Below, in pieces: positions 2,216 to 19,385 of a stretch of DNA of 64,000 nucleotides. The DNA comes from Octopus vulgaris. Lineage: Eukaryota. The translations under genes and the position numbers were made by a program. The notes under the pieces were generated by a model. That model was given only the letters and a program-made list of their open reading frames with translations, searched no databases and was not told the DNA's origin. Positions within the stretch are counted from its first letter, which is position 1; each line of letters opens with the position of its first letter. The stretch is from positions 17,112,001 to 17,176,000 of the forward strand of contig OX597814.1 in assembly GCA_951406725.2 (NCBI GenBank), read 5' to 3'.

Positions 2216-2413
2216 TGACCTCGTGTGTACCGTTGGCGATTTCTTTTCCTCTGTCTTCTCTTCTCTGGATCTTTCCGTCTCCTATGTTTCCGACGAAGAG
2301 CTCCGCTCGAAACGTTAGACCCTCCTTCTTTCCTGAGCGTCCAATAATGCTATATTTGTTCCACGTCCTCGAGTTGTTGTGTTTTTTTTGTGCTTTCTTG
2401 TTTGGATTAACTT
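2216..2413 (+). mobile_element. ~200-nt hammerhead-bearing element, family A copy 1 (solo PLE pseudo-LTR or retrozyme-like)
   Basis: Aligns end to end with 6395-6601 and 15904-16108 (starts tgacc.cgtgtgtaccgttggcg, ends tttggattaactt) and is followed by (TA)n. Confidence 0.8.
2286..2320 (+). ncRNA. Minimal type I hammerhead-like ribozyme (U4C core variant)
   Basis: gttt CCGACGA a gagc-tcc-gctc GAAAC GTT agac: stem I gttt/agac (one G-U pair), 4-bp stem II, palindromic ACGT stem III. Confidence 0.65.
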
Positions 2414-2588
2414 TATATATATATATATATATATATATATATATATATATATATATATATATATATATAGAAAATAGTAAAAAGTGAAAAAACTACAGAA
2501 GGCTTAAAGGTTAAAAAATATATATATTTGCGTCAATATGTCTGAAGAATATTAAAAAAATTTTTTTCTTTACAATGACATAATTTAG

Positions 2589-2627
2589 AAGAAAGACCGG
2601 TTTCGCGTTTAGCTTTTCAAATTTCTT
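2589..2627 (-). ncRNA. Hammerhead-like fold in the inverted pseudo-LTR (U3-A8 core variant)
   Basis: Minus strand: aagaaa t TTGAAAA gc-taaac-gc GAAA ccgg TC tttctt. It has a 6-bp stem I and a palindromic ACCGGT stem III, but one extra nucleotide before the core and only a 2-bp stem II. Confidence 0.55.
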
Positions 2628-2670
2628 GCGATGTCATGTTTATATTGAATTAATTAAAAAAATTAACCTT

Positions 2671-3683
2671 AAAATAGAAACAGACATTTTTTACAAAGCC
2701 ACAGACGCCAAACAATACCTTCTTTTTAATTCATGCCACCCAAGACACACTAAAACAAACATCCCCTTCAACCTTGCAAGAAGGATATATGCACAATAGT
2801 GTCAGAACAACATACCAGGAACTTTAGACTGCAAGAACTCAAAAACACCCTAATTGACAGACATTACCCAACTCAACTCATAGAGGATGGGATCAGACGT
2901 GCAACAGAAATCAACATAGAAACTTTAAGAAAAGTTCAACACAACAACACACCTTCCCCGAAAATACTACCTTACATATGTACATACAACCCCAGAAACA
3001 AAGAAGCCTTCACCATCATCACCCAGAATTTACCAATACTTCATAAGGACCCCAAATTAAAGGAAATTCTAAACATACACCAAATCATTAAAAGCTACAA
3101 ACAACCTAAATCACTTAAAAAGATTCTCACAAAGGCAAAATTGTTTTCTGAAATTACGGATGCAAAAGTAAAAAAATGTGGTAGATCGAACTGTGCAACA
3201 TGTCCAAACCTGCTAGAAGGATCAGAATTCCTCTTTAAAGAGGGACAGAAATTCAAGATCAAATCTAACTTTACTTGTGCCTCTGAAAACATAATTTATG
3301 TCATAAAATGCTCGGGCTGCCACCAAGACTACGTGGGATCCACGGGACTATCACTCAGACGTAGATGCACACTGCATCGACAACAGATTGCATTCCCAGA
3401 ATACAGAATGATACCTTTTAGTGAGCACATTGAGAAATGCGCAAAGCAACTACTACCACAATTTTTAATCTTTCCATTTTACCAATGTGCTATCGGATCA
3501 TCAACACAAATTAGACTAAACAAGGAAACATTCTTCATTGAAAAGTACAAGCCCAGACTTAACCATGCCAACATACTGATACAGAGAAATTCACACAAGG
3601 GAAAGGAAAAAAATTTTAAGCGATTATCTCCCTTACACCGGAAGAAATCACTCATTACCTCCCCTTATTTAGAACTCTTTTGA
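2671..3683 (+). pseudogene. PLE polyprotein C-terminus: RT thumb, Cys-rich linker and GIY-YIG endonuclease (Neptune-like)
   Basis: 2671-2787 reads KIETDIFYKATDAKQYLLFNSCHPRHTKTNIPFNLARRI (PLE thumb motif), with a frameshift near 2790. ORF 2799-3683 has KKCGRSNCATC and FTCASENIIYVIKCSGCHQDYVGSTGLSLRRRCTLH...E...PRLN. Confidence 0.92.
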
Positions 3684-4663
3684 ACATAAACATAACGATA
3701 ACTCTATTCAACATAAACATAACGTCGCAAGAAAGTTGAAAAGCTAAACGCGAAACCGGTATGTCATTGTAAGGAAAAAAAAATTTTTAATATTCTTCAG
3801 ACATATTGACGCAAATATATATATTTTTTAACCGTTAAGCCTTCTGTAGTTTTTTCACTTTTTACTATTTTTTATATATTCAACCACGTGCTTTCACAAA
3901 CCAACTTTCTTATCTATATATATATATATATATATATATATATATATATATATATATATATATTACGAATATATATATACACATACATAAAATTATAGAC
4001 ACTGGTCTCGTGGTCAGATTTGTTGTAGACTCGAAAACTAATGAATTGGTGAAATACAGTATTTTATAGTGAGGCGCCTTAGTTCAACGTTTCCGCTCTC
4101 GATAGAATTAAGTGCGCAGAGAGCCTTTAGCTTGCTAAAGTGGAATTTATGAATTACTATTTTCACGTGTGAGGAAAGTTTGGAAAATGTCCGAGAAAAA
4201 TACCAATGCCGGGAACATTTTGATAATATTTATCTTCAGTTTTAAACATGTCACATGTATTTTACAATATGAAATGTTTCAGTTTGCTTCATACTATATC
4301 ACCATGATTTGTTTTACTTATAAAATATCACTAAAAATTATATTTTGTGTTACTGGAGTACATGCTATCCCATGGCTTTTGAGTAACTAGATCAATAGCT
4401 ACAGACATGTTGAAATCATTCTTTGTCCTCAATGAGTACTGCTTCAATGTTTCCACAGATAGACACATTATTTCAATACTGTCAAGGAAACGCTATCATC
4501 TCGTGGAAAAGTAGTATCCTCTTAGCGAACAGGTAAAATATTTGTAAGTTACACGTTGTTTAACACCGTGGTGGCAGTGCGCAGCGTAGTTGTTTGTTTC
4601 CGTCTGTAGTATTTGATCTAGAATAATATTTTATCAATAATTCAGTAACTGATCTATATGTTA

Positions 4664-4778
4664 CGGGAATTGTAGGGTTTATAACATTCGGAAACAAAAA
4701 TGGTTTCTAATAATCGGAGACAAAAAGGTTTATAATATTCGGGAATTGGAGGGTTTATAATATCCGAGGCAAAAATGT
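4664..4778. repeat. Degenerate ~25-nt minisatellite
   Basis: Recurring ggtttata(a)tattcgg-like units, four to five imperfect copies. Confidence 0.55.
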
Positions 4779-5011
4779 CTTAGATTTGTTCGTAGTGGTT
4801 ACTAGTTGTGTGATGGAAAAAGTTAGAATTATTTCCCTGTCCAAATCCTACTCCACATGGATATGATTGGGCTTTTATCCATATAACAAATATTTCCGAA
4901 TCCATAAAACAAGGAGAAGTCTATTGAAGATATATAGTTGTCTGAGAATGGGTCAGTTGCTATTTACTTACTTAAGACATATGTTTGTAAGTAGGCCTAC
5001 ACGTATATATG

Positions 5012-17822: not shown

Positions 17823-18339
17823 ATCGGTTACTCTCATATTAGCTTCTCAAAATTGTGTATATACAAAAAAGAATTATAATAACCTATAGACATATAAATA
17901 TTTCTAAGTCTCTCTAAAGGAGACTACGGCAGTGGTACTGGATATTTATAGTTATCGCCAAGCTAATATGACAGTCCAGAAATATAGCGACGCCTGCTGG
18001 ATTCGGCTGATCTGCATTCATAAGGGGCAAATACCCTGAAACTAGTCTGCAGATGCCTGACCACCAAGGGGAAGCGGCGGACCTCCCCTGTTCGAAGGTT
18101 ATAATGGACACAGGTTCGTGTGTCACATAGCTAGCTAGAGGCGATGGCCTCTTGGAGCTAATCAACGGCAGCATTCGTGCTATATTTCTGGACTGCCATA
18201 TTAACTTGGCGATAACTATAAATATCCAGTACAGCTGCCGTAGTCTCCTTTAGAGAGACTTAGAAATATCAATATATCTATAGATTATAATAATTCTTTC
18301 TTGTATATACACAATTTTGGGAAGATGAGAGTACCCGAT
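17823..18339 (+). mobile_element. Long inverted-repeat element with a hammerhead fold in the spacer
   Basis: Arms ~17823-17998 and ~18169-18339 are reverse complements (for example tttctaagtctctctaaaggagactacggcag / ctgccgtagtctcctttagagagacttagaaa). Confidence 0.8.
18010..18054 (+). ncRNA. Type I hammerhead fold (U3-A8 variant, G5 mutated)
   Basis: atctgca TTCATAA gggg-caaata-ccct GAAA ctag TC tgcagat: perfect 7-bp stem I, 4-bp stem II, palindromic ACTAGT stem III. Confidence 0.65.
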
Positions 18340-18426
18340 TACACTGATCCCAACGTCCAGCTGGTACTTATTTAATCGACTTCGAAAGGATAAAAGGTAA
18401 ATCGACTTCGGAGAAATTTGGACTCA
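18340..18426 (-). mobile_element. SINE family 1 fragment
   Basis: ctggtacttatttaatcgacttcgaaaggataaaaggtaaatcgacttcggagaaatttg matches the reverse complement of the family 1 centre. Confidence 0.7.
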
Positions 18427-18512
18427 CTGTTGGCTTTTACTGCGCCTAGGGCTGAACTCGGTGTCCTTTTAAGTTGGCAAGGAGAGTTGAGTTTAACCCT
18501 AGGCGCGGTAAG

Positions 18513-18572
18513 AGCCACCGACGAGAATTAAGAGGCACGGCATCAAAATTCGAAATCAGCGGTGATCTGGCT
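18513..18572 (+). ncRNA. Complete monomeric type I hammerhead fold (U4C variant)
   Basis: agcca CCGACGA gaatt-(17 nt)-aattc GAAA tca-gcgg-tga TC tggct. All three stems pair; predicted cleavage is after the AUC ending at 18567. Confidence 0.72.
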
Positions 18573-18805
18573 ATGTCCGTTGGGGAGCTTACCTCCCCTT
18601 GTCAGTCATTATAAGACTACTTCTGTGGGTATTGAGTTGTTTTGACTCTTATTTCCAGCAATGTTAGTACAACTTAGCACCGTCTGTCACTTTAGTGTCG
18701 TCTATAAATTTGCCTTCAGGTTGTTAAATTTCTAAGCCACGCATATTATTTGTATGTATATAAATATATATATATATATATATATATATATATATATATA
18801 TATAT

Positions 18806-19135
18806 AATTGCAGCGTGGAATATGTTTATAAGCCATTTAAGAAACACACAAAAACAGATAGATTCACTTCAACATTTAAATTTAATTTGTCAAAATATTT
18901 TCGTCGCTTTGAGACCGCGACCTGTTCACTGACAAAACTTTGTGCTGTCAGCGAACATGTCGCGGTCTCAAAGTGACGAAAATATTTTGACAAATTAAAT
19001 TTAAATGTTGAAGTGAATCTATCGGTTTTTGTGTGTTTCTTAAATGGCTTATAAACACCTTCCATGCAGCAGTTGTTTTCGTTCCAGCACACGATCTCAG
19101 ATCAGATCACTTGCTATGCAAGTACATCTCCGTAA
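18806..19135 (+). mobile_element. Palindromic hammerhead element (inverted plus direct pseudo-LTR with tail)
   Basis: Arms 18806-18934 and 18946-19074 are near-perfect reverse complements around an 11-nt loop. There is a unique 3' tail to ~19135, and the flanks are (TA)n. Confidence 0.85.
18886..18936 (-). ncRNA. Type I hammerhead fold (G3-C8 variant)
   Basis: Minus strand: tttgtca GTGAACA g gtcgc-ggtctcaaa-gcgac GAAA atat TT tgacaaa, with a 7-bp stem I, 5-bp stem II and palindromic AATATT stem III. The mirror copy on + at 18946-18992 has core GCGAACA. Confidence 0.68.
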
Positions 19136-19186
19136 TATATACATACACACACACACACACACATCTCTTGAGCACCACCAGCTCAA

Positions 19187-19385
19187 ATATTTTCTCCTCT
19201 GTCTTCCCTCCTTGGGATCTTTCCTTCTCCTTGTTTCCGACGAAGAGCTCCGCTCGAAACGTTAAACCCTCCTTCCCTTCTTTCCTGAGCGTCAATAATA
19301 CTTTAATTGTTCCACGCCCAGCGTTGCTGTGTTTTTTTCTTTTTTTTTTTCTCTTTTTTTCTGTGTTTTCTTGTTTGGATTAACT
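19187..19385 (+). mobile_element. Family A hammerhead element copy 4 (5'-truncated)
   Basis: 19233-19267: gttt CCGACGA a gagc-tcc-gctc GAAAC GTT aaac (perfect 4-bp stem I). It ends tttggattaact followed by (TA)n. Confidence 0.78.

Follow-up and report, generated by a model that had tools for sequence, protein, structure and literature searches.

A non-coding hammerhead repeat of about 200 nt in Octopus vulgaris as a probable pseudo-LTR module of Penelope-like (PLE) type

The window, the whole 64-kb stretch of Octopus vulgaris DNA analysed here, contains four copies of a non-coding repeat, family A, which is a further family of the already known PLE min-HHR ends. These are copies of a very abundant animal repeat, abundance and end profiles being drawn from summed contig depth, which is not copy number. 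The 200-base hammerhead module is best explained, with moderate confidence, as a PLE pseudo-LTR (pLTR), probably put into TA tracts by a Neptune-type RT/GIY-YIG protein from RNA that was likely uncut. The preliminary description of this DNA had offered a retrozyme-like element or a solo pseudo-LTR, and it is the latter half of that reading that fits best.

Full members of family A number exactly four in the window, all on the + strand (blastn and nhmmer; nhmmer E-values of 8e-68 to 2e-49), with pairwise identities of 86-95%. Copy 1 (2213..2412) has a 5' junction that is ambiguous over an ATG common to the element and to its TA/TACA flank. Copy 2 (6395..6599) lies within a long (TA)n tract, and copy 3 (15896..16106) has a 5' end 8 nt longer than the start first assigned to it. 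Copy 4 (19163..19385) has the shared part from 19187 onwards; its segment 19163-19186 is unrelated to copies 1-3 and features a 6-bp hairpin preceded by a (CA)n run. The units are non-coding, as proposed earlier, with a PLE endonuclease remnant of another family located nearby after copy 1. Copies 1-3, but not copy 4, have an ATG just 5' of the hammerhead core; in copies 2 and 3 the frame it opens is closed by a stop inside the unit. None of the four window copies is arranged in tandem, and all lack both an inverted arm and a tail of 30-40 bp. Their common orientation was correctly described but is not beyond chance (p=0.125), and a local 'system' of four copies was rejected on this value and on that for clustering within 17 kb (p=0.06). 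The segment 6716-6748 on the - strand, which looks like a related 3' end, was also rejected (E 2.8, not significant; one unrelated stretch of the window scored higher). The exact 24-nt core pattern gave 0 matches in metagenome, prokaryote-genome and viral contigs. Of the 12.9 million reads in each of two raw-read DNA runs with the same species label, X21 and X22, only 20 and 43 matched, numbers that do not fit a high-copy repeat and are too small for mapping the ends.

All four copies code a type I hammerhead with the common core C[T/C]GACGA-A-GAGC-TCC-GCTC-GAA-ACGT. The minimal motif occupies + strand positions 2286..2320 in copy 1 (C3 at 2290, predicted cut after 2316), 6463..6497 in copy 2 (C3 at 6467, predicted cut after 6493), 15970..16004 in copy 3 (predicted cut after 16000) and 19233..19267 in copy 4 (C3 at 19237, predicted cut after 19263). 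In copy 3, stem I (15970-15973/16001-16004) encloses C3-A9 (15974-15980), an extra A (15981), stem II (15982-15985/15989-15992), GAA (15993-15995) and the loopless stem III (15996-15999), all on the + strand. The conserved core C3-A9, G12-A14 and U16.1-H17 is present in type I order in 4/4 copies, as is the unpaired A between positions 9 and 10.1 that is followed by GAGC/GCUC, including the G10.1-C11.1 pair. Stem II has 4 bp and loop 2 has 3 nt. Stem III is limited to A-C/G-U in every copy, its ACGU being self-complementary and without a loop, and the minimal hammerhead monomer cannot close it, in agreement with the preliminary description. The latter also gave stem I (GUUU) as paired in three copies, which is right for full pairing (4/4 pairs in copies 1, 3 and 4), copy 2 reaching 3/4. 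The C at 16004, which makes a G-C pair in helix I, is found in 87-91% of contig depth. Copies 1 and 4 have the U4C change, which accounts also for 35-44% of depth, and copies 2 and 3 keep U4; residue 17 is U in the former two and A in the latter two. The core is conserved above the rest of the unit, with 25 of 26 columns invariant versus 109 of 153 elsewhere (Fisher p=0.003) or versus 109 of 137 ungapped columns (p=0.03), both p values being indicative because the copies are not independent. An Rfam scan of copy 3 alone revealed no hammerhead family at E up to 10, while in the whole-window scan the rows listed, 150 of 306, were all miRNA matches driven by microsatellites.

This organization is that of the min-HHR of metazoan PLE pseudo-LTRs (Cervera and De la Pena 2014, PMC4209133). 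Both are of type I with a palindromic 15.2-16.2 lacking loop 3, have an extra base between 9 and 10.1, the G10.1-C11.1 pair and a 4-bp helix I, occur mostly as single dispersed copies and are predicted to have low activity, as dimers only. Family A differs by its helix II of 4 bp, against 6-8 bp in schistosome and Drosophila min-HHR, and by frequent U4C (PMC4209133); the alignments of that study may already include families with either feature. No paper among those listed by the literature search deals with family A or with a 5'-clustered solo pLTR, Repbase/Dfam may already catalogue the family, and ribozymes are unmentioned in the available part of the octopus repeat annotation PMC13282606.

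Dimer cleavage was described for PLE hammerheads (Lunse et al., as cited in PMC6765202) and would be possible in principle for family A. The predicted energies are -5 to -7.5 kcal/mol for the active dimer, about -15 for two monomers and -22 to -25 for a mis-paired duplex, and the active dimer is predicted to lose out to competing folds. An alternative GUUUC/GAAAC pairing, which would block the core, is predicted with a probability of 0.7-0.9 for copies 2 and 3; it is weak in copy 1 (0.32) and copy 4 (0.03). Folding of the whole unit is no better than that of shuffles (z 0.38).

The two ends of the unit behave differently, with a fixed 3' end and a clustered 5' end, and the claim of a fixed length of ~200 nt holds only as an approximation. 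At the 3' side TTTGGATTAACT adjoins (TA)n in 4/4 copies, as first reported, with TT inserted before the repeat in copies 1-3. In run X1, positions 16104-16112 retain two-thirds of the depth found over 16086-16103, which means that the majority of 3' ends continue into TA. The 5' end is clustered, not fixed, and this unusual tightness of start points is the sole trait of family A that is out of the ordinary. Copies 1-3 do start close together but not at a single point, as copy 3 carries TCAAAATG further upstream. This sequence is part of the element: in each of the four contig runs the 5' loose end that ranks first is 'before 15896' (96, 50, 128 and 73 contigs). Depth reaches 2-4% at 15893-95, 24-30% at 15896-98, 45-52% at 15899-901, 83-85% at 15902-04 and 100% at 15905, with the same step shape in the four runs, which come from three organisms. 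In the contigs of these public runs 24-30% of depth thus extends at least 8 nt beyond the earlier start.

A 5' cluster of this kind could also arise if the copies were the 3' ends of a full-length PLE after ordinary 5' truncation, with the RT tending to stall or be joined about 200 nt in through a hairpin or the likeness of ATGTG to the TA/TG target, with no RNA 5' end at that place. The fraction of depth at 15896 or beyond and the consensus of the 15896 loose end, which finishes in CAT in 3/4 runs, suggest that the element continues for at least a few bases, and a long form, if conserved, would be under-counted because its copies would merge into few contigs. Truncation would also accommodate the 1-3 nt shared with the flank at all three junctions examined, and the depth of the copy 1-3 5' segment in X1, only about 40-46% of that over the hammerhead and 3' half. 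The family A end is presumably present as well on longer endonuclease-coding elements in octopus assemblies. The start of copy 4 near its 6-bp hairpin recalls the palindromes described for the 5' ends of pLTRs (Arkhipova et al. 2013, PMC3846280). However, about 70-76% of depth terminates within a 9-nt span, far tighter than random truncation, and the loose ends, once past their first few bases, are rich in TA and reach an agreement of only 0.45-0.51. Truncation is regarded as rather unlikely, though it is the likeliest of the alternatives.

In the retrozyme reading, hammerhead dimers would cut tandem transcripts to give a unit-length RNA circle, of which a PLE RT would copy a single turn. Animal non-LTR retrozymes (Cervera and de la Pena 2020, PMC7229834; Li et al. 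2026, bioRxiv 10.64898/2026.07.22.740005) are likewise short, non-coding, of type I and probably PLE-mobilised, and they occur also as monomers, the 'solo retrozymes' of the latter study. They are nevertheless defined by tandem units, canonical hammerheads and circular RNA, whereas family A has no tandem copy and a minimal hammerhead: the canonical motif combines a 6-bp helix I with loop 1-loop 2 contacts, in place of a 4-bp helix I and a 3-nt loop 2. Conservation of the core is in line with a retrozyme, as are two joints of a 3' to a 5' end in run X9, which may be RNA or may hold DNA, from 16082 to 15905 (depth 17) and from 16083 to 15911 (depth 10). These joints are imprecise, mutually different and tiny relative to the X9 unit depth of 2e5-1e6. 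No such joint occurs in X1 among 15 of 28 joints listed, and none of the 16 loose-end rows listed shows 3' end sequence at the 5' loose ends. A circle, moreover, offers no reason for stopping after one unit. The lack of tandem copies and of an abundant head-to-tail junction among those listed, which short contigs could still hide, makes the retrozyme half of the preliminary description weak, and it is considered improbable.

The remaining alternative derives solo pseudo-LTRs from recombination between both terminal repeats of full-length insertions. It would directly yield one repeat length and was proposed for some rotifer solo pLTRs (PMC3846280), but it requires tens of thousands of past full-length insertions. 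As pLTR length depends on truncation of the upstream copy, 5' clustering would still lack an explanation, and this origin appears very improbable.

The PLE pseudo-LTR assignment finds a local counterpart in the remnant of a Neptune-type PLE of another family (2470..3913, + strand), which uses the TA tract of copy 1 (2413..2469, + strand) and itself ends in (TA)n. Mobilisation by a PLE, suggested previously, is likely. The 5' arm of the remnant is inverted (2470-2650 matches the reverse of about 3706-3877), its coding part (2650-3566) comprises an RT-thumb, CX4CXXC and GIY-YIG, the endonuclease remnant starting about 240 nt 3' of copy 1, and it has its own U3-A8 minimal hammerheads at 3736 (+) and 2620 (-). 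It was rejected as the parent of family A since its terminal repeat is unrelated (score 25.5, reached by 2/300 shuffles and due to a T-rich stretch only). No RT/GIY-YIG ORF ending in a family A module is present in the window, whose lone PLE ORF remnant has another end.

The size of family A compares with published pLTRs of 193-218 bp and with solo pLTRs (PMC3846280). It shares with solo or short pLTRs of EN+ PLEs (PMC3846280) and with microsatellite-targeted Neptune/Naiad PLEs (Craig et al. 2021, PMC8557442) the ~200 nt length, the fixed 3' end, the TA target and no discernible target-site duplication. Unlike these elements, it is very abundant, has 5' ends concentrated within about 10 nt and, in its four window copies, shows neither an inverted arm nor the tail of 30-40 bp. 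No strand-change joint is found among the joints listed, and reads of X22 display the 3' end followed by a short TA stretch and by a further, incomplete copy of the 3' part (15 and 4 reads). The predicted cut site is inside the unit, which in copies 1-3 extends for 97-101 nt on one side of it and for 96-106 nt on the other; cleavage therefore did not set the ends and the template was likely uncut. The Anolis Poseidon PLE provides a precedent (Frangieh et al. 2024, PMC11167929). Its RT initiates within the RNA, 85-92 nt beyond the cut site; the length of the product tracks the RNA 5' end, hammerhead mutants leave insertion unaffected and cleavage needs protein. Family A resembles it in the distance of about 100 nt from the cut site down to the 3' end, in its AT-rich target and in the uncut hammerhead of its copies, and differs in that the Anolis ORF starts at stem II while an ATG precedes the family A core only in copies 1-3. 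The internal-start mechanism was demonstrated for a Poseidon-clade element, not for Neptune.

The pseudo-LTR reading translates into the following sequence of events, in which the fixed 3' end about 100 nt past the hammerhead cut site, entering (TA)n, is what the copies display. According to the published PLE mechanism, the protein would nick AT-rich DNA and reverse transcription would begin at a fixed internal RNA site 3' of the hammerhead, giving the fixed 3' end. The RT would then pass the intact hammerhead and run off the RNA 5' end about 100 nt upstream, the RNA start being placed inside the pseudo-LTR of an autonomous parent or in a short non-autonomous master. No transcription start was detected, which counts against this step. 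Ragged joining to the TA flank would produce 5' ends clustered at about 15896-15905. The hammerhead, mostly in an inactive fold, would require dimerisation or a helper protein in order to cut, and the unit ends would be set otherwise.

Family A adds one family to the thousands of known PLE minimal hammerheads. Its value is modest and is that of a test case for whether PLE hammerheads process the transposition template, being abundant, with a fixed 3' end, a tight 5' end and an intact hammerhead in between. A bolder version, put forward only tentatively, is that family A is a pLTR-only parasite that has multiplied in several related species to tens of thousands of copies, and whose run-off copies are footprints of a ~210-nt uncut template with the hammerhead silenced by a conserved self-blocking fold. 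If true, this would bring genome-scale support to internal initiation, for which the evidence so far is in vitro and comes from a single lizard element, and the hammerhead would be retained for some role other than fixing where the copied RNA begins and ends.

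Exactly four full members of family A, the ~200-nt non-coding repeat with a minimal hammerhead, were found in the window by blastn and nhmmer, all on the + strand: copy 1 (2213-2412), copy 2 (6395-6599), copy 3 (15896-16106) and copy 4 (19187-19385). The surrounding DNA is AT-rich and animal-type (35% GC, 125 TA runs). Number and strand agree with the preliminary description, while the grouping of four co-oriented copies in 17 kb is at chance level (p=0.125 and 0.06). The copies are 86-95% identical and their 3' terminus is in each case TTTGGATTAACT next to (TA)n, with an extra TT after the terminal TTTGGATTAACT in copies 1-3. 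Copy 4 has a different 5' segment from copies 1-3 and a 6-bp hairpin close to its 5' boundary (19168-19186); palindromes are described at the 5' ends of pseudo-LTRs (pLTRs), the terminal repeats of Penelope-like elements (PLEs), in rotifers (PMC3846280). A short piece like the family A 3' end (6686-6760, - strand; not significant, E 2.8) lies tail-to-tail with copy 2. Hammerhead words in reversed order, GAAAC ~30 nt ahead of CUGAUGA, occur directly upstream of copy 2 (6032-6070, +) and at 26984-27020 (+), both segments terminating at TA tracts.

All four copies carry a type I hammerhead in the order GUUU, C3-A9, extra A, stem II (4 bp, 3-nt loop), GAA, stem III, residue 17 and stem I 3' arm. 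Stem III is loopless (ACGU) throughout, as first proposed, and stem I pairs completely in copies 1, 3 and 4 and in 3/4 positions in copy 2. This anatomy is that of the minimal hammerhead described in PLE pLTRs by Cervera and De la Pena (PMC4209133), with an extra base after A9, G10.1-C11.1 and a palindromic 15.2-16.2; such hammerheads have a short helix I, occur mainly as single copies and cleave weakly even as dimers (PMC4209133). In the 26-nt core, 25 columns are invariant, compared with 109/153 elsewhere (p=0.003; p=0.03 for ungapped columns only) and the best-scoring 26-nt conservation windows all overlap it, so that the hammerhead is better conserved than the rest of the unit, with the caveat that the copies are related. 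Copies 1 and 4 have the previously overlooked change U4C, which accounts for 35% and 44% of contig depth in the public sequencing runs X1 and X9, respectively, and for which considerable loss of in vitro activity is reported (PMC3088659).

Copy 1 has its TA tract in common with a PLE remnant (2470-3913) that carries an inverted 5' arm. Judged by its sequence it is Neptune-type with a GIY-YIG coding remnant, 72% identical to the RT + GIY-YIG protein P0001, and has the CX4CXXC linker given as a mark of Neptune/Nematis elements (PMC8557442). Each arm has its own U3-A8 minimal hammerhead, at 3736 (+) and 2620 (-), which shows that PLEs in this DNA terminate in hammerhead-bearing repeats within TA tracts. 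The remnant was rejected as parent because its terminal repeat bears no relation to the family A unit.

Several other elements were noted. A degenerate sister minimal-hammerhead end (15070-15235, -) shares the GAAACGU core, terminates in (CT)n and matches the family A profile with nhmmer E 0.0013. The 290-bp near-perfect palindrome at 53652-53941 adjoins (TA)n, has CUGAAGA followed ~60 nt on by GAAACACGUGUA in its right arm and is possibly a further PLE end, head-to-head. A degenerate hammerhead-like core of another family lies just past a TA tract (11402-11440, +), and a non-LTR retrotransposon, broken but still matching RVT_1 and zf-RVT, spans 23586-25584 (+).

Abundance and ends were profiled from public sequencing runs aligned to copy 3. 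X1 yielded 21,793 contigs on this stretch, with a summed depth mostly of 2-5 million over the unit versus 25-65 on single-locus contigs; summed depth, itself no copy number, suggests roughly 10^4-10^5 copies. The raw-read DNA runs X21 and X22, which bear the species label of the best holder, gave just 20 and 43 reads and are thus almost without the repeat, despite the high summed contig depth elsewhere.

At the 3' end, depth over 16104-16112 is two-thirds of the level immediately upstream, so the majority of copies continue into TA. The 5' end forms a staircase that recurs in four contig runs, representing three coded organisms: relative to 15905, depth is 2-4% at 15893-95, 24-30% at 15896-98, 45-52% at 15899-901 and 83-85% at 15902-04, the final 3-4 nt being blurred by chance matches to the TA flank. 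At the 5' end ~70-76% of depth terminates inside 9 nt, a narrower spread than random truncation would give, and the 3' terminus is fixed. The single start at 15904 was not retained: the top-supported loose end lies before 15896 in all four runs (96, 50, 128 and 73 contigs) and in three of them the consensus terminates in CAT; beyond, it is TA-rich with agreement of 0.45-0.51 (24 of 140 rows listed). The element therefore extends at least a few bases past that start. Over the 5' segment of copies 1-3, X1 depth is ~40-46% of that across the hammerhead and 3' half; together with the other 5' segment of copy 4, this indicates a hammerhead-plus-3' module common to at least two 5' types. A truncation hot spot within a longer element is a rather unlikely source of these ends, and recombination a highly improbable one.

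Animal retrozymes are defined by tandem units and canonical hammerheads (PMC7229834; bioRxiv 10.64898/2026.07.22.740005). The retrozyme-like reading could not be upheld, the hammerhead being minimal and none of the four window copies tandem. No 3'-to-5' joint was present among 15 joints listed of 28 in X1, nor family A 3' end sequence on the 5' loose ends listed, with the proviso that junctions might escape detection in short contigs. An RNA circle would find a trace in two 3'-to-5' joints of X9, but these are imprecise and of low depth (17 and 10) and the window has no tandems, which makes it improbable. Reads of X22 (15 and 4) run from the 3' end through a short TA stretch into an incomplete 3' copy, which represents either a partial tandem of PLE type or a second insertion in that TA tract. 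Predicted energies, which leave out tertiary contacts, are -5 to -7.5 kcal/mol for the active dimer, ~-15 for two monomers and -22 to -25 for a mis-paired duplex. For GUUUC and the GAAAC of the core, the predicted pairing probability is 0.7-0.9 in full-length copies 2 and 3, 0.32 in copy 1 and 0.03 in copy 4.

Family A is very probably a PLE-type end of some kind. The unit straddles the predicted cut site, with ~100 nt on either side in copies 1-3; an RNA released by cleavage would start and stop at that site, and the template would thus be uncut or re-ligated. For the anole PLE, reverse transcription is described to start internally at a constant site 85-92 nt beyond the cut, with the RNA 5' end setting product length; cleavage there is assisted by protein and not required (PMC11167929). 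By analogy, we lean towards an internal start of this type on uncut RNA as the explanation of the family A ends: reverse transcription initiating past the hammerhead would fix the 3' end, and a template RNA start ~100 nt upstream of the core, if so located, would give the 5' cluster. Transcription of PLEs reportedly begins within the pLTR. Among the papers listed by literature searches, none described family A, which is a further family of the known PLE minimal hammerheads; the tight clustering of its 5' ends is the sole feature worth pursuit.
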